A stretch of DNA of 30,178 bases from a virus: the UHGV virus genome UHGV-0037346. The stretch is one strand, 5' to 3'. Below, piece by piece: positions 5,162 to 24,349 of the stretch (positions are counted from its first letter, which is position 1; each line of letters starts with the position of its first letter). Position numbers and translations under genes: made by a program. A model generated the notes under the pieces. The model saw nothing but the letters and a program-made list of their open reading frames with translations, did not search any database and was not told where the DNA came from.

Positions 5162-6352
5162 TTAATTGCTGTTAACCGAGGTGACCAGATTTGCCAGGTA
5201 TTTATCGGTAATACGCTGGCGCAGGGTCAGGTTTTCAAGAGGAGGCACCGGGGTATAGTCGTAGTCGATATACAGTTTTCCGGCCTTGAGGGTTTCCGCA
5301 TCGTTGGATTCTTCGCTGAACCAGCAGGTCGCATCCACGATATAGCCGTTTGTTTTCAGCTCACGGAATTTGGCATTGATGCCGTCAACGATGTCGCGAA
5401 TCAGCGTGGCGGTGATGGGCTTGTCCACCGCCCACATGTGCGCCTCAGCCATCGTGTCGGCCAGCACCTGCGCGGTGCGGGTGTAGTTTTCAAAGAGGAA
5501 CAGCGGGTCATCAGAGCAGGTACGGTTACCCCAGAAGCGGAAACCGTCACGGCGAATCAGCGTAGTGACGCCTGACTCGTTAAGCAGGTCAGCATCGGTG
5601 CCGGACTCCTGCAAATCCCAGAATACAGAGGCGCTGATGCCGGTAACACCGTTTACCCCGACGTTGGACAGCGTTTTATGCCAGCCCTGCTCCTGGTCGA
5701 TTTTAGCGCGCAGACCCAGCGCACGGGCGGTGGCATACGCGGTGGCGGTGGTACTGGTGACCGTATCCCATGCGAGGAAATCCGGCCAGATGACCATCAG
5801 CTCACGCTGGCTGAAATTCTGGCGGTAGGCTTTCACCTCGGAAATGGTTTTACAGCCCCATGCGCTGATATACCCGAAAGCGCGCAGCTTCTGACAGACG
5901 GATGCCAGTGCAACAGCCACCTCTTTGGTATCCAGTCCCGGCACACCGAGAATACGCGGTTTAACACCGGTTACCGACTCCGCCGCCAGCAGGGCTTTCA
6001 GTCCGGTGTACTGACCGTTTTCGTCAGTGGTGCCGATGATATTGGAAACGGTCTGCGCGAGTTTCGTTTCTTCGTCGTCGCCGGTTCCGTCTTCCACGCG
6101 CACGACAACGGTGACCGGTTTTGACTGGTCAGCGATGGCCTGCAACGATGCCGCCAGCGTGCCTTTTTTACCGGCCTTTGCAATCGCGCTCTGCACATTG
6201 GTGATCAGCACCGGTTTATTGACGGGGAAGGTTTCCGCATCCGCATCGCTGGCCGTGCAGACCATGCCAACAATGGCGGTGGATACGGTGGAAATGACGC
6301 GGGTGCCGTCGTTAATCTCCAGCACCTGCACGCCGTGATGATAGTCACTCAT
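5162..6352 (-). CDS. FI: Contractile tail sheath protein FI
   Basis: 396-aa ORF, ATG at 6352 preceded by GGAG; size and position match P2 gpFI. Confidence 0.9.
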   Translation of the reverse strand: MSDYHHGVQVLEINDGTRVISTVSTAIVGMVCTASDADAETFPVNKPVLITNVQSAIAKAGKKGTLAASLQAIADQSKPVTVVVRVEDGTGDDEETKLAQTVSNIIGTTDENGQYTGLKALLAAESVTGVKPRILGVPGLDTKEVAVALASVCQKLRAFGYISAWGCKTISEVKAYRQNFSQRELMVIWPDFLAWDTVTSTTATAYATARALGLRAKIDQEQGWHKTLSNVGVNGVTGISASVFWDLQESGTDADLLNESGVTTLIRRDGFRFWGNRTCSDDPLFLFENYTRTAQVLADTMAEAHMWAVDKPITATLIRDIVDGINAKFRELKTNGYIVDATCWFSEESNDAETLKAGKLYIDYDYTPVPPLENLTLRQRITDKYLANLVTSVNSN

Positions 6353-6411
6353 CCGTTTAACTCCGTGGTTAATGGGTGAGTGTTATTTTCAGTTGTGCCG
6401 GAGATGTCAGG

Positions 6412-7005
6412 CTATTTGTCCCGGTTGGTTAAGGGATGACACAATTTATTCTTTGTCGCTGATGAGGGGAATTTTTTATAGAGCGTGGACAGGCCAATAT
6501 CAAAAATCAGCGCCACACGTTGACGAGATTCCCCCGCAGCCAGCAACCGTCCGACCTGCTCCCACTCACTCGCGGTGAGTTTCGGACGTCTGCCACCAAT
6601 ACGACCTTTGGCTCTGGCCGCTTCCAGTCCGGCGCGTGTCCGCTCGACAATGAGTTCTCGTTCCATTTCAGCCAGGGCACCCATCACATGGAAGAAAAAA
6701 CGCCCCATCGGCGTGCTGGTATCAATAGCATCCGTCAGGCTGCGAAAATTAATGCCGCGTTCGCGCAGTTCCTCAACCAGAATGACCAGATGCCGCATAC
6801 TACGCCCCAGCCTGTCCAGCTTCCAGACAACCAGAGTGTCACCTTCCGATAATGTTCTGAGCAGTTTTTTCAGTCCCGGTCGGTCGGACTTAGTGCCGCT
6901 GATTTTATCCTCAAAAATCAGCTCACATCCTGCGCACTCCAGCGCGTTACGCTGCAATTCCGTGTTCTGGTCATTTGTTGACACGCGTACATAGCCAATA
7001 AGCAT
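6412..7005 (-). CDS. Serine recombinase, DNA invertase (Gin/Pin/Cin/Hin family)
   Basis: N-terminus MLIGYVRVSTNDQNTELQRNAL with catalytic Ser motif, resolvase core ...VVWKLDRLGRSM..., C-terminal HTH ...ALIFDIGLSTLYKK; second in-frame ATG (7005) gives the canonical invertase N-terminus; ORF track start is 7011. Confidence 0.9.
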   Translation of the reverse strand: MLIGYVRVSTNDQNTELQRNALECAGCELIFEDKISGTKSDRPGLKKLLRTLSEGDTLVVWKLDRLGRSMRHLVILVEELRERGINFRSLTDAIDTSTPMGRFFFHVMGALAEMERELIVERTRAGLEAARAKGRIGGRRPKLTASEWEQVGRLLAAGESRQRVALIFDIGLSTLYKKFPSSATKNKLCHPLTNRDK

Positions 7006-7224
7006 GAGCATCCCCCTGAATAAAAACCGGAGATGATGCCAGTTGCCCGTTATCTCTGCATTTTCTTAAACGTTGCTTTAAGATGGGCGTGGTCACCACC
7101 ACATCATCAAAGTGGAACGCGCTGGGAGCGTACCGCTGCAGAATGGGGCATCTCATTAAGCAGTTGATTACTTCCATTGCGAGTGATTCAATAGATATTG
7201 AAAATTCACCCGAAGAGAAAGAAA

Positions 7225-8370
7225 ATGCAAGGAAATAGAATTGACTTTGTCAATACTTTGAGAGGATTTGCAGCATTAGCCGTTGTTATTGCTCACTATA
7301 CTGGTAATTTTTGGTCAATGCGAACAGCAGTAGCAAGTCTTACAAATGCTCCTGAATTACCATCTGAAACATATGCTTGGCCTAGTTATCTTGTATGGCT
7401 CCATGCCTTCCCTTTGTTTAACTGGGGGGCTTTCGGCGTTGCTATATTTTTCATCATTAGCGGGTTTGTCATTCCACTCTCGCTACAAAAAATAACATTT
7501 CACGGTTTTTTATTAAGCAGAATCATTAGAATAATACCAACATATATTATTGGTTTTACTATAACGCTTACAGCCATATTGATAAGCAGTAAATATTTTT
7601 CAGTGGAATGGCCATTTAATAACAAAGAAATATTGATTCACTACATCCCTGGAATCAGAGACTTGTTGTACTCCAGGAGCATTGATGGAATCATTTGGAC
7701 ACTGGAGATAGAAATGAAGTTTTATCTCATTTGCGCTATATTAATAGCAGTATTTCGCAAGCACTCCATAAAAGTTTTCATTACCCCGCTTATTCTTTTT
7801 TTGTTTGCTCTCTATATTAACAAGGTTGCTCCTGAATGGATTAACTCCAATATATCAGCATTCCATCTTGCCATGGCATACATGTTTTTTTCTCAGTATA
7901 TTATTTATATGTTTATCGGAACCATGTTTTATTATATGTATTGTGGTTATATAAATGCCAACAAGGCTTATCTTGGAATCGGCATATTATTTACTTTATT
8001 CTGCATTCTTTGGTGGGCTGGTCCATATTCAGCCAGTATAAATGTCGCCTGGAGCTATGCATTTGCGCTTTTGGTCTTTGCTTTTGCTTATGCTCACCCA
8101 AAATTATTTAAATCCAATAGGTTTTTTGATTTTTTTGCCAACATAAGCTATCCGCTATATATTATCCACGGGGTAGCTGGGTATGTCGCCCTTCGAATTT
8201 TACTTGAAATGGGGTTTAAAGCATGGGTATCTCTCTTAATTGTGACTTTTTCCATTATATTTTCGTCATGGTTAATACACATCTTGATTGAATCCCCTTC
8301 TCAGAGAGCAGGCAAGCGCCTCGTAGCTAAACGAGGTAGGCCATTAAAAAAAACAGCGCAACCAACCTAA
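7225..8370 (+). CDS. Acyltransferase family 3 integral membrane protein (Oac/OafA-like; putative O-antigen acetyltransferase)
   Basis: N-terminal motif NRIDFVNTLRGFAALAVVIAHY typical of acyltransferase_3; ~10 hydrophobic segments; strongly AT-rich and rare-codon-biased compared with flanking phage genes; ATG at 7225 (ORF track start 7198 is TTG). Confidence 0.8.
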   Translation: MQGNRIDFVNTLRGFAALAVVIAHYTGNFWSMRTAVASLTNAPELPSETYAWPSYLVWLHAFPLFNWGAFGVAIFFIISGFVIPLSLQKITFHGFLLSRIIRIIPTYIIGFTITLTAILISSKYFSVEWPFNNKEILIHYIPGIRDLLYSRSIDGIIWTLEIEMKFYLICAILIAVFRKHSIKVFITPLILFLFALYINKVAPEWINSNISAFHLAMAYMFFSQYIIYMFIGTMFYYMYCGYINANKAYLGIGILFTLFCILWWAGPYSASINVAWSYAFALLVFAFAYAHPKLFKSNRFFDFFANISYPLYIIHGVAGYVALRILLEMGFKAWVSLLIVTFSIIFSSWLIHILIESPSQRAGKRLVAKRGRPLKKTAQPT

Positions 8371-8410
8371 TAGATCTTATCAAGTAAAGGCAGCTGCTCT
8401 TATTATACAA

Positions 8411-8437
8411 GAGGTGCACTTTCTTCGAGTGCACCTC
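8411..8437. terminator. Candidate bidirectional hairpin between convergent acyltransferase and tfa genes
   Basis: Perfect 9-bp inverted repeat GAGGTGCAC-(9 nt)-GTGCACCTC in the 127-bp convergent intergenic region; flanking U-tracts are weak. Confidence 0.4.
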
Positions 8438-8497
8438 CTCTGAAAAACAACTTTATAAAATTATTTTCATCGCCATATTATTCATTAATCACCCATC

Positions 8498-8890
8498 TTA
8501 CGGAATAATAGGCCAGCTAATCTCTGCATCAGTGTTAGCGTCAATCCTGCTCAGCAGCACACGGTATTGTTTCCACAGAGGCAACGTGGCGGATTCTGCA
8601 TCTGTAGCCATACCCAGATCGACGGCATCCTGTAGCACACCAATTTGCTGCGTTGCTTCATTCATCAGCGAATTTTTCATAGCGAAGTTATTGGTAATTC
8701 GCAGTTGTTTTGCTGCTGCTAATTCTTCATCGGTCGGAGTTGGCGCACTAAAAACGCCATTGACGTAATGCCAACCGATACCCATACCTTCAGTAGAGAG
8801 AATGGCGCTGGCTGATTCAGGCCATTCTGACTTGCCATCCCAGATAACAATATTTTCTACGATGCCATTTTTGATAATTGCATAGTTCAT
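8498..8890 (-). CDS. Tail fibre assembly protein (P2 gpG-like Tfa)
   Basis: 130-aa ORF directly downstream of tail fibre; C-terminal ...LPLWKQYRVLLSRIDANTDAEISWPIIP resembles the conserved Tfa C-terminus. Confidence 0.8.
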   Translation of the reverse strand: MNYAIIKNGIVENIVIWDGKSEWPESASAILSTEGMGIGWHYVNGVFSAPTPTDEELAAAKQLRITNNFAMKNSLMNEATQQIGVLQDAVDLGMATDAESATLPLWKQYRVLLSRIDANTDAEISWPIIP

Positions 8891-10404
8891 TTACGCATAC
8901 TCCATAACAATAACCACACCCGCAGAGCCATTACCGCCATTAACGTTTTGATTTCCACTGATTGTTGCCGCGCCATTACCACCCGCACCATACCCACCAG
9001 GGCCAGAAATAAAGCTGCCGCCGCCAAGACCGGAACCTACAGTCCCTCCGACTGCTGTTGGGGTTGCCATCACACCGGGTAGCCCGGCGTACCCGTTGCA
9101 CAAAATGGCACCCACGGTCGAAGTGCCACCCTGACCGCCCATGCCACATGACGCAGAGGAGCCTGACGCAGTGCAGCCGTTGCCTGGCTGGCCTCCACTT
9201 GCTGAGAGATAAGAGCCAAAAGTCGTCGTACCACCCTGCGTGCCATTGGTCATCGTCGAGGCAATACCGCCATTACCACCCGCACCAATCGTGACAAGCA
9301 CGGTTGATATTGCAGACAGGTTAAAGAGACCACGTGCCATTCCGCCGCCACCGCCACCACCACCCGCGGCGTTATAGTTTCCTGTGGAAGTTGCCCATCC
9401 GCCGCCCNNNNNNNNNNGTTATAGTTTACTGTGGAAGTTGCCCATCCGCCGCCCCCACCGCCCCCAATAGCGATGACATCCGCGAACATTGCTCCGGGAG
9501 TTTTGGTGTAAGTGCCAGACGTCTTGATTATCTGCATGCCAATCAGACGACCGACTGCGCCGTTATTTACTAAACCAAGGTATGCGAGAAGACCGGCAAC
9601 ATCCTTTCCACTCAAATGAGTCAGCGTATTGTCCAGCGGTTGTTTACCTGCCAGCGCATTGTTAATGGTGGTGCTGAATTTCGGGTCATTGTTAATGGCT
9701 GCGGCAATTTCTTTCAGTGTGTCCAGCGTGGCAGGCGCACCATTAATCAGAGCGGTAATAGCAGCCTGTACAAACGCAGTGGTCGCAATCCGCGTGGTGT
9801 TATTTCCTGCATCAGGAGTCGGCGCTTTTGGTTCTCCGGTAAATGTCGGATTATGTTTCTGTGCATACTGGGTATGAGGATCCTGTGCGGCAATGTGGTT
9901 TCTCATCTGGTCATCCACATACAGCCTTAATTCCAGGACTTCATCATCCACGTATTTACGGGTCGCCAGTACCACCGACGGGTCGATTTTCAGCGTGATG
10001 GCTTCGGTATTCGTGACAACCAGAATCATGCGGATAGTCTGGGTACGACCACTGCCTTCCTGCAACTGCGGTTTGTACGTTTCCGGGCAGTTCGCCACCG
10101 CAATGAGTACGCCTTCATCATCATAAAGCCCAATCTCACGGATCCAGAATCCGCCCTCGTTCTCAGGGATGATTTGCTCCGCAATAATCTGGCTCTGGTT
10201 GTTCGGGTCAACACTCAGAAGATTCAGCGGCGCGATGCGTTTCTGGTTAATCAGTTTTGTCTGTGCCGGGTCTGGTGTCGGCAAGACACCATTCGCATCA
10301 CCAACGGCCATTTGCGTCAGATTCAGCTTACTGCCGAGCATCGTCGCGTTAGCCAGCCGTGCTGCGCCCTGATTAGTCAGAATGGCGTAGTATTTCACTG
10401 TCAT
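8891..10404 (-). CDS. H: Tail fibre protein (P2 gpH-like), interrupted by assembly gap
   Basis: N-terminal ~150 aa resemble the P2 H N-terminal domain (…MAVGDANG…GGFWIREIGLYDDEGVLIAVAN…YKPQLQEGSGRTQ…); Gly-rich C-terminal part (8891-9340) joins in frame when read through the repeat downstream of the N-run; the reading frame on either side of the 10-N gap differs, so the true length is unknown. Confidence 0.7.
9408..9417. other. Assembly gap (10 N) inside tail fibre gene
   Basis: Run of n characters; flanked by a ~37-bp direct repeat (9371-9407 and 9418-9454, one mismatch). Confidence 0.95.
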
Positions 10405-11012
10405 GCGTTTACTCTCAGGTTATCAATTAAATGAATGGCCGAGGCCGGGAAATAATCCCCTCCGACAATAATGGCCTCCGGGGTGTAGGGATAAACCGTC
10501 AGGGCGTCACCGTGATAGCATCCCGCACCGGCAAAAATGTTGCCGGTTGTACTTAAACTGATAGCCAGTCCCGTCAGATGGCGGCTTGCCGGTTTTGCAT
10601 CAGCAACGAGGCGCTCCAGCTCCTGATACATTTCCTCGGTAATACCCTGCTCAAGCACGCCAACAACGATGCGGAACGTCCCCGGCTCCTCGTTGAGTTG
10701 CCACCACTCCCTCACCTCAATCAGATAGCCGAGCGGCTCCACCACACGCCGGATTGCGCCTATAGTGCCCTTATGGCAGTGAATGAAATACGCATCGCGG
10801 ATAACAGCGCGTTTTGTCGCTTCCGGCCACTTATCATCCCAGCGGTCAACCGAAAATGACCACGCCAGCCACGGCAGCAGATTTGCCGGGCAGGTGTCCG
10901 GGTTCCACAGCTCACGAATACTGACCGGTGTTTTTTCAATTTCCGCACAGGCTTTTGCAGCAGCGACTTCAAGCGGTGATGAGCCGGTCGGCAGCAGTCG
11001 CGAATCACTCAT
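10401..11012 (-). CDS. I: Baseplate/tail protein I (P2 gpI family)
   Basis: 203-aa ORF between J and H; stop overlaps H start. Confidence 0.8.
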   Translation of the reverse strand: MSDSRLLPTGSSPLEVAAAKACAEIEKTPVSIRELWNPDTCPANLLPWLAWSFSVDRWDDKWPEATKRAVIRDAYFIHCHKGTIGAIRRVVEPLGYLIEVREWWQLNEEPGTFRIVVGVLEQGITEEMYQELERLVADAKPASRHLTGLAISLSTTGNIFAGAGCYHGDALTVYPYTPEAIIVGGDYFPASAIHLIDNLRVNA

Positions 11013-12897: not shown

Positions 12898-12974
12898 AAC
12901 GGAAAGGATGCCGCTGGACGATACCAGCAGCAATCATGGAGGGTTCTGTCAGCTGTGACACAACATAACAAATA

Positions 12975-13730
12975 TTAGTTGTAGCACTTCTCTATAATCT
13001 TCATACACTCCTCATGAGCTAAATCATGGCTGTCAAATTCTTTATTAAAAAAGAAGAAAAACGCCTTCTTAACCTGAGGAATTTCAATAAAAATAAATTC
13101 ATCAACCTTATGAAAGAAATGAAAACTCTTGTTTGATGTTTCAAAAACCATCAAAGAATTATGTTTTTTATCCTTCCATTTCGACATCAGATTGCGTCGC
13201 GATTTTCGTATAATCCTGAAGACATCCCCCGGCGTCGTATCGACATTCCCCCAAAACATTGCAACCGGGAAGTTTGCAAGAAACGGGATATAATCACCAC
13301 CTTTATACCTGAGAAAGCGGTTCCGCAAATCCATTAATTGCAACTTAAAACCCATGTATTGCAACCACCATATGATGCAATCATACTCATAATCTGTTAA
13401 CTCCTCCCCTCTCTTTTCCGTAAGAAATTTCTTCAGGTTATACTCAAACACTCCCAGCAAATCAGAATTGCACACTCTGCATGCTGGTACAGTGGCTTTA
13501 ATGTAATGAGTTGACTGATTATTCTTTTTATTAATTAAAGATTTTTCAGCATTTGACTCAAAGGCCCACTGAGGAATAATGTGCTCACGAGTAATATCGT
13601 CAGAACTCCCGCATAACACACATATATCAGCATTATGGTCAGCAATAATACAATCCATAACTTTCTTTTGAGAATGCTTTACTCTTTTTCTCAAAATGGA
13701 AAACTTTTTATCCACAAACACCCGTCTCAT
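12975..13730 (-). CDS. HNH-motif protein, AT-rich cargo at the S-V (P2 orf30) locus
   Basis: 251-aa ORF in clearly AT-rich DNA; motif C-VL-C…REHIIPQW…N…C-RV-CN matches the HNH (beta-beta-alpha-metal) signature; start ATG overlaps S stop (13727-13730). Confidence 0.6.
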   Translation of the reverse strand: MRRVFVDKKFSILRKRVKHSQKKVMDCIIADHNADICVLCGSSDDITREHIIPQWAFESNAEKSLINKKNNQSTHYIKATVPACRVCNSDLLGVFEYNLKKFLTEKRGEELTDYEYDCIIWWLQYMGFKLQLMDLRNRFLRYKGGDYIPFLANFPVAMFWGNVDTTPGDVFRIIRKSRRNLMSKWKDKKHNSLMVFETSNKSFHFFHKVDEFIFIEIPQVKKAFFFFFNKEFDSHDLAHEECMKIIEKCYN

Positions 13731-14185
13731 ATAACATCTTTCGATAGAATCACTAATAACTCCCTTTCTATCAATTGTATAGATTCCTTGTCAAAACCAA
13801 ATAACTCACGAACAGGATATTCCACCACAGCACTATTACGCCCCGGCTTATCCCTAAGCCCTAATTGATGTACTCGCGCAATTCGTTGTACTCCGCTGGC
13901 AAACGCCACCACCGCCGCACTCTCGCTACCTGTTGCTTTCATAAACCGGTTAGTGCGTAATTTCACAAACATTTCCCGCTTTATCCGGCCTTTCTTATTT
14001 CGTACTGGTTGGTTTTTTCTCGGTACATACGGCGTACCATCCGGGGCTTTTTGTAATTTAATTCGCTGCTGCTGGCGCTGGCGCAGCTTCTTCGCAATAT
14101 CTACCGCCAGTCGCCGACGCCCTGACGTTGACAGCGATTCAATCAGTCCGGTCAGACGGTCTTCAAAACACTTAAACTCATTCAT
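13727..14185 (-). CDS. S: Tail completion / virion morphogenesis protein S
   Basis: 152-aa ORF directly after R; size and position match P2 gpS. Confidence 0.78.
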   Translation of the reverse strand: MNEFKCFEDRLTGLIESLSTSGRRRLAVDIAKKLRQRQQQRIKLQKAPDGTPYVPRKNQPVRNKKGRIKREMFVKLRTNRFMKATGSESAAVVAFASGVQRIARVHQLGLRDKPGRNSAVVEYPVRELFGFDKESIQLIERELLVILSKDVI

Positions 14186-23316: not shown

Positions 23317-24246
23317 TCAAACCAGGCTTTTGCCTTGCTTCATTTTTTTAGATGAGTCTAAAAATTTGAAATTATCATTAGATGAAAATATTCTTTCTGC
23401 GGTATGCCGAATGACTGAAGTATTGAAGACCGCAGCCTGCTCCTCATTACAACTGAATACACCCTCATGACCATCAAACTCGCCCGCCAAAAGAAGGTTT
23501 TTTGATACTGGGAACAAAACTAAAGTGTCTTTTACACCAAACCCGGGGGAATAAGGGCCTCGTGCTAATTCAGGATTAGTCCACATTAAGCAAACTGGGT
23601 TATCTGAAGTTATAAATGACCCTTGCCCATCAGATATGGTCATAAGTGACCAGTTGCGTTGATGCAACAACTTGGTGATAACAGGTACACATTTCATTTC
23701 CATATCTATCATGAACTCTCTGATTACATTGATTTCGAAATTATCCCCATCCACAAAATTTTTAATTTTTTCGTAAGCGAGATCATATGGCAAAGACTCA
23801 CCCATTTCTTTCTCATAAGCTAATTTGCAATCGTCCCAACGCTCAGCCGAACTAACTGAGGATTTCATGATAAACTTTGCTATTTGTTTCAATGGAGATG
23901 ATAAATGTTCTCGCTGAGCAGGCGTACGTATTGCCAATAAGGAAATAAACTCCAGAATAACATCTTTGGTTTCGCCTGAAAACTCGCCCCCCTCCTCAAG
24001 TTTTCTTAAATGAGTAGCGACACTGCCTTCAAACTCTGCAAGAGAACTCTCGAGATAGTTTGGGTCAACTCCATCCAATTCTAATCGGTTGAAATCTCTA
24101 ACCCCCCCGACATTGCGAGTATTACTCTCAAAGGTTTTGCGCTCCTTTAAATCTATTACAGTTAATTTTGATTTTTTCCCCCCATTACTTGTAAACCCTT
24201 TCAAATAACATTGGGATAAAAAATGATGATGCCTTGCAACACTCAT
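23317..24246 (-). CDS. Hypothetical protein, AT-rich cargo at the cos-A (tin/old-equivalent) locus; possible DUF4238-like
   Basis: ~310 aa from ATG 24246 (GGAG 7 nt upstream); N-terminal HHHFLSQCYLKGF and later …FITSDNP… motifs; clearly AT-rich; no TM segments seen. Confidence 0.55.
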   Translation of the reverse strand: MSVARHHHFLSQCYLKGFTSNGGKKSKLTVIDLKERKTFESNTRNVGGVRDFNRLELDGVDPNYLESSLAEFEGSVATHLRKLEEGGEFSGETKDVILEFISLLAIRTPAQREHLSSPLKQIAKFIMKSSVSSAERWDDCKLAYEKEMGESLPYDLAYEKIKNFVDGDNFEINVIREFMIDMEMKCVPVITKLLHQRNWSLMTISDGQGSFITSDNPVCLMWTNPELARGPYSPGFGVKDTLVLFPVSKNLLLAGEFDGHEGVFSCNEEQAAVFNTSVIRHTAERIFSSNDNFKFLDSSKKMKQGKSLV

Positions 24247-24349
24247 ACTCAGCTCCGTTATGGCTATAATCGCATAAATAATAAGCACTTATATTGCAAT
24301 CATCTAGTTAAATACACAATATTTATGACTCCGAAATTTCATTAAATCA

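Follow-up and report, generated by a model that had tools for sequence, protein, structure and literature searches.

The interruption of the tail-fibre gene in the window (the whole stretch of 30,178 nt analysed here) and the apparently duplicated motif on either side of it are very probably an artefact of scaffolding, in which two contig ends that overlap by 37 nt were joined without being merged. Two contigs sharing this overlap would have been linked by a 10-N placeholder, with the result that the same stretch of the fibre gene was written twice. The true sequence would then include one copy of the 37-mer, no missing bases and an intact fibre of 488 aa. Most likely, the duplication of the motif has no biological reality and the fibre gene is intact, and the underlying system is ordinary, if rare, and of known kinds, namely a Pam3-type glycine-rich tip on a P2 fibre that is carried by a Gin-type invertible segment. 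The one feature that is mildly unusual is an acyltransferase gene in place of the alternative cassette. The features are listed in Table 1.

Table 1. Features of the tail-fibre region, with positions in the window
Feature	Position	Strand	Remarks
Putative Gin-like serine DNA invertase gene	6412–7011	-	Pfam Resolvase and HTH_7; adjoins the invertible segment
Crossover site L	7061–7086	+	TTTTCTTAAACG-TT-GCTTTAAGATGG, core 7073–7074; inverted relative to site R
Invertible segment	7075–9576		~2.5 kb in the record, 2,455 bp without the 47 nt considered artefactual
Predicted membrane acyltransferase gene (Acyl_transf_3)	7225–8370	+	Pfam E value 7e-23; in the usual place and orientation of the alternative cassette
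Tail-fibre assembly chaperone gene, gpG/Tfa type	8498–8890	-	Inside the segment; Pfam Caudo_TAP, E value 1e-21
Tail-fibre gene, P2 gpH type	8891–10404	-	488 aa after removal of the 47 nt considered artefactual
Variable cassette, predicted TNF-like and glycine-rich domain	8891–9576	-	Residues 277–488, 31 % Gly
Probable downstream contig end, 37-mer with GGA (Gly326) allele	9371–9407	-	Residues ~317–329, GGGWATSTGNYN
N-run, probable scaffold placeholder	9408–9417		Only N-run; gap-free relatives exactly 47 nt shorter
Probable upstream contig end, second writing of the 37-mer with GTA (Val326) allele	9418–9454	-	Same L001 interval, 6125–6161
Crossover site R	9565–9590	-	TTCTCGCATACC-TT-GGTTTAGTAAAT, core 9577–9578; located from homology breakpoint and hybrids
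Constant N-terminal part of the fibre	9579–10404	-	Residues 1–276; outside the invertible segment

The gap and its flanking sequences

There is a single N-run in the window, and the two copies of the 37-mer that bracket it match at 36 of 37 positions. Both copies, read on the forward strand, are GTTATAGTTT[C/A]CTGTGGAAGTTGCCCATCCGCCGCCC, and the C/A at 9381 and 9428 is the sole mismatch. No further match to the 37-mer was found in the window with up to 3 mismatches allowed, nor was any found in 100 shuffles. The near-identical flanking copies noted in the initial annotation are real features of the record, far beyond chance. It had also read WATST(V/G)NYN on either side of the gap, and both alleles are indeed encoded on the minus strand, where the 37-mer upstream of the gap translates as GGGWATSTVNYN and the downstream one as GGGWATSTGNYN.

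The minus-strand ORF from 10404 runs ...IAIGGGGGGGWATSTVNYN into the gap. Past the gap, the minus strand reads GGGWATSTGNYNAAGGGGGGGG-MARGLF... in another frame up to the stop at 8891, and the ORF extending from 9340 to 8891 is out of frame with the one from 10404. The initial annotation considered the gene to be intact and its split to be only a product of the arbitrary gap length. The frame offset stands, and the gene is most likely intact, as removal of the 47 nucleotides considered artefactual (one 37-mer and the 10 N) gives an in-frame ORF. Translation of the corrected gene had been proposed as a check. The overlap merges in frame, and deletion of the 47 nt leaves an uninterrupted ORF of 488 aa with the expected domains.

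Where the distance between two contigs is estimated as zero or below, short-read scaffolders insert an N-run of minimal length. The window resembles other unmerged contig ends in short-read scaffolds in having a short N-run of fixed length with the same sequence on both sides, and in that collapsing the overlap both reproduces finished genomes and restores the ORF. It differs from them in that the overlap contains one mismatch, at the SNP that separates copies of the cassette within one genome. The downstream 37-mer is identical to the single copy found in three relatives (L001, L002 and L011, described below), while the GTA allele is located 10 nt from the end of the upstream contig. This Val allele is natural, as it is present in the homologue P0004, and on the upstream contig end it may belong to another copy or may be real. 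The upstream contig end may perhaps be chimeric, having borrowed its last bases from another copy of the cassette.

Copy number in relatives and the cause of the contig break

Two complete E. coli chromosomes, NZ_CP135649 from strain TUM14664 (L001) and NZ_CP189662 from strain 102651 (L002), are 99.8 % identical to the window over the cassette, and each contains one 37-mer and no gap. Both are exactly 47 nt shorter than the window because one 37-mer (37 nt) and the N-run (10 nt) are absent, and when the window was compared to L001 using BLAST, both of its 37-mers aligned to one and the same interval (Table 1). The draft contig L011 (GCA_900196225.1, FZIH01000037.1) contains the same prophage in the same orientation as the window, and is 100 % identical to it over 2,835 nt upstream and 99.86 % identical downstream. 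Here too the motif occurs once and is read straight through, in an alignment of 1,105 nt with 2 mismatches and no gap. In each of the 5 complete E. coli genomes with the cassette, a merged query of 282 nt aligned without gaps and over its entire length or almost so. The GGGGGGGWATST-x-NYNAAGGGGGGGG motif is single in 16 of the 17 closest full-length protein clusters (P0001–P0017), and the remaining cluster, P0017, includes one diverged copy (...LATSTANYN...). In a metagenome scan, only one contig was recovered, and it contains the motif once.

Two adjacent copies were not found in any of the 5 complete genomes (11 places), in L011 or L018, in the 17 closest full-length clusters or in further partial proteins. 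The suggestion that the gap probably lies inside a tandem repeat of unknown copy number was not borne out, as the motif is single in every gap-free relative examined. Scans for the two-copy pattern in the GTDB species representatives and in IMG/VR also gave no match, but these negatives are without weight because, as controls showed, both collections lack the cassette altogether. For the strain from which the window derives, we infer the single-copy state from its relatives, and most likely no real sequence is missing at the N-run.

A genuine tandem duplication would instead mean an extra glycine-rich hairpin, with two WATST-x-NYN tips (one with Val and one with Gly) and with real sequence lost in the gap. 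A one-base difference between the copies is what diverged repeat units would show, and both contigs end next to a poly-Gly coding tract, where a collapsed extra hairpin would look the same. The number of hairpins is also known to vary between phages, with 12 GRMs in Pam3 gp24 and 10 in S16 gp38. However, the absence of a second copy from every gap-free relative listed above, above all from the near-identical L011, and the fact that G/A/V is an ordinary polymorphism among alleles at codon 326, make a duplication very unlikely. That the fibre gene is truly broken at the poly-Gly tracts, by a frameshift or as a pseudogene (for example through slippage in a GGN-run), and that the gap hides this, is a reading for which P0034, an ENA-derived homologue frameshifted in its second poly-Gly tract, offers a parallel. 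We consider it extremely unlikely here, given that simply merging the overlap keeps the frame and gives a product that agrees with intact homologues at every residue save that of the polymorphic codon, and that the contig ends depart from the reference at that one SNP only. A genuine duplication and a genuine frameshift account for whatever confidence is withheld from the artefact.

The contig break itself was most likely induced by a repeat, the cassette being multi-copy in the host genome, to judge from other genomes. We draw this from the recurrence of the breakpoint, the number of cassette copies and the location of the SNP at 9381/9428. Six draft contigs from independent assemblies start at window positions 9341–9370; for the Logan contigs, the start is at 9341 (L012) or 9342 (L013 and L014). 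Partial proteins also begin or end in the motif, with P0019 beginning at NYN, P0036 ending ...GGGWAT and P0033 ending ...GGGGMAR. The cassette is rare and was found in only 5 of 5,426 complete E. coli genomes, where the number of matching places has a median of 2 and does not exceed 3. Both of the complete genomes that carry this prophage have the cassette in an e14-like StfP locus as well. Starting at the crossover core, the P2 and e14-like copies in TUM14664 have the same sequence for 150 bp. The first SNP between them corresponds to window position 9381/9428, exactly where the 37-mers disagree, and the next is at ~9311. When prophages are compared, no position other than 9381 varies between 9578 and ~9312. 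The first ~150–320 bp of the cassette would be a near-exact repeat that recurs in fibre cassettes of other prophages in that host genome (the e14-like StfP locus, for example), and short-read assemblers would be expected to branch at the 37-mer because the first distinguishing SNP lies inside it.

The same artefact could also have followed a break caused by low coverage or low quality of short reads in the G-rich poly-Gly tracts, rather than by a multi-copy repeat. The GC content of 60-nt intervals around the tracts is 66–68 %, compared to 52 % overall, and all of the draft contig ends fall in or beside the tracts. Against this, L012–L014 start 30–31 nt before the inter-copy SNP at ~9311, which would fit branching of a graph with k=31, the value that we take to apply to the Logan contig graph, and the mismatch between the window's 37-mers coincides with an inter-copy SNP. 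We regard poor coverage as a rather unlikely explanation of the break, while a drop in coverage over the G-rich tracts is a possible alternative or contributing cause.

L011 contains a gap of its own, a single N at position 2836 flanked by a 93-nt duplicate (equivalent to window 9459–9551). It is 40 nt from the gap in the window, likewise splits the fibre ORF, and represents a second case of unmerged contig ends.

The fibre tip and the invertible segment

The fibre gene is flanked by the I, J, W and V genes in the P2 gene order, and is directly followed by the chaperone gene, giving the order I-H-G. The whole window is P2-like. Pfam matches in the fibre are to Phage_tail_fib (residues 1–150, E value 3e-62) and Gly_rich_2 (PF21722; residues 296–484, 37.4 bits compared to a cutoff of 24.3). 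NCBIfam has no model for the fibre, the chaperone or the acyltransferase. The DNA for the constant 276-aa part shares 98.8 % identity with P2-named phage records and with ~1,500 E. coli genomes, and this homology ends at ~9572. Past the crossover site, the fibre shows no similarity to the tip in the P2-named records, in agreement with the earlier view that the Gly-rich distal domain is unlike that of P2 H. Canonical P2 is not known to carry an invertase. A tblastn search of 50,697 phage records with the cassette gave no match, but this is not evidence of absence because the BLAST low-complexity filter may mask a query with 31 % Gly.

The C-terminal 212 residues were modelled via a close homologue, P0005, using an alignment of 89 sequences (pLDDT 89, pTM 0.83). 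The predicted fold is a TNF-like sandwich with a glycine-rich hairpin lattice, as in cyanophage Pam3 gp24 (PDB 7YPX/7YFW), and the model matches the ALK glycine-rich domain more distantly. Bxb1 gp33, the S16 gp38 adhesin and the ALK/LTK glycine-rich domain are also among the closest known systems. Here, unlike in these, a recombination site joins the module to a P2 gpH N-terminus. The N-terminus (residues 1–276) would anchor the fibre to the baseplate, with the 212-aa cassette forming the tip.

[quoted passage not shown] In the fibre examined here, the 37-mer codes for the tip between the first two poly-Gly strands (the first Gly-Gly hairpin), and this exposed tip, WATST-G/A/V-NYN, is likely to be a receptor-contact loop. 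Receptor binding through the distal loop tips is suggested by the work on Pam3 (PMC9608196) together with the G/A/V polymorphism at residue 326. The proposal in the initial annotation that the distal domain is the host-range part is supported by the predicted fold and the context.

Among natural alleles, residue 326 is Gly, Ala or Val, and within the first ~270 bp of the cassette only one nucleotide, in codon 326 (9381/9428), varies across prophages. This polymorphism may be relevant to receptor specificity.

The cassette is part of a segment that also includes the chaperone and acyltransferase genes. In both L001 and L002 this segment is inverted relative to the window, at 99.9 % identity and with colinear flanks, and the orientation in the window is the fibre-ON state, in which the fibre gene is completed. 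The crossover sites were located from the homology breakpoints. Each is 26 bp with a TT core, the two are identical at 15 of 26 positions, and both reciprocal hybrid sites are present in L001. They appear to resemble the hix/gix consensus. An automatic search for inverted repeats over 6300–10500 missed the crossover sites because they are too short and imperfect. The outer flank (7012–7079) is conserved beside fibre cassettes in ~2,000 E. coli genomes, and at least six unrelated fibre N-termini, that of the e14-like StfP among them, run into the right half-site and cassette at ...LGLVNNG, as predicted by cassette exchange through Din-type sites.

The adjoining invertase gene product is most similar in these comparisons to Gin of phage Mu (PDB 3UJ3/4M6F, 'DNA-invertase'), with an E value of 4e-94 compared to 3e-33 for the gamma-delta resolvase, and it would flip the 2.5-kb segment between the two 26-bp TT-core sites. 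The arrangement shares with the Din family (Mu G/Gin, P1 C/Cin, e14 P/Pin and the EPEC P2-like prophages) a Gin-like serine invertase beside the segment, two inverted 26-bp sites with a 2-bp core, a constant N-terminus joined to a variable C-terminus at the site, a chaperone gene inside, and both orientations in nature with reciprocal junctions. It differs in having only one fibre cassette, with an acyltransferase gene in the position of the alternative cassette. Invertible fibre loci have already been documented in the P2-like prophages of EPEC E2348/69 (PMC4272514).

A population mixed for the orientation of the segment, with the assembler breaking at the recombination site, was also considered as the source of the gap. 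The invertase looks active, both orientations occur in nature, and the short draft contigs L015–L017 end at 7094–7100, beside site L. However, the gap is ~160 nt inside the segment and off the crossover sites, and the junctions at 7061–7086 and 9565–9590 are read without interruption within the window's contigs. As the gap is 160 nt from the nearest site (R), it was not caused by inversion, and this explanation, which we consider scarcely credible, was dropped. Since both junctions are read within contigs, the orientation seen in the window is also not a choice made in scaffolding.

The acyltransferase gene and other observations

The GC content of the acyltransferase gene is 33–39 %, compared to 52 % for the window. 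Of 5,426 complete E. coli genomes, only the 2 with the same prophage have the gene, and its relatives in the phage collection are all distant (24 % identity). The gene may have been acquired horizontally, and its product is possibly a modifier of LPS or O-antigen. In the flipped state, the fibre would consist of 276 plus 30 aa followed by a stop, and the acyltransferase gene would lie directly behind the truncated fibre gene, in the same direction as the tail operon. A search for a second alternative fibre C-terminus found none, as there is only one cassette; because the acyltransferase gene occupies the place of the alternative cassette, flipping leads to a truncated fibre and not to a second specificity. 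No remnant of an alternative cassette was found in the inner region, 7080–7230, which matches the same two genomes only, and no convincing promoter of its own was found for the acyltransferase gene.

Instead of a choice between two host ranges, this arrangement could represent a one-sided switch, with a complete fibre and its chaperone in the ON state, and a truncated fibre with the acyltransferase gene co-directional behind the tail operon in the flipped state, though we consider this unlikely. If it is true, flipping would couple loss of the fibre to changed expression of the acyltransferase.

In another P2-like prophage, L010 (5048–6130 in NZ_CP148034, strain NH-21), the same cassette is fixed in a fibre of 562 aa, and a family-9 glycosyltransferase (GT9) gene followed by an IS3 is found at the position of the acyltransferase and invertase genes. 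Envelope-modifying genes seem to recur beside this cassette.

Some entries for related fibres are also split. In P0034 (ENA assembly, e14-like fibre), the second poly-Gly tract has 7 rather than 8 Gly codons and the sequence then runs out of frame, which could be due to a sequencing error or to slippage in the GGN-run. L009 (3712–4641) and L019 (2613–3542) are annotated in RefSeq as a pseudogene, 'StfP, missing C-terminus', with a separate 'glycine-rich domain-containing protein', and an intact StfP-cassette fusion of 309 aa (P0001) exists in other genomes. This split is probably an effect of annotation at the cassette junction.

Elsewhere in the window, a 323-aa DUF4238 protein encoded at 23317–24288 (minus strand) gave a full-length match to PADLOC 'DUF4238-Pers' (E value 1.8e-219), and is a candidate anti-phage defence gene product of the prophage. 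The stretch at 12914–14108 is without counterpart in L001 and L002. It includes an ORF of 251 aa (12975–13730, minus strand) that separates the baseplate V gene from the next tail gene, and the sole family match of this ORF, to HNH_5, is below threshold (16 bits, cutoff 27.5).

We recommend that the record should not be read as containing a split or pseudogenised fibre gene or a repeat of variable number, as deletion of 47 nt restores the gene. There is also a general trap, in that prophage fibre genes in short-read assemblies break and become duplicated at predictable places, because fibre cassettes exchanged by invertases are near-identical multi-copy repeats within the genome.
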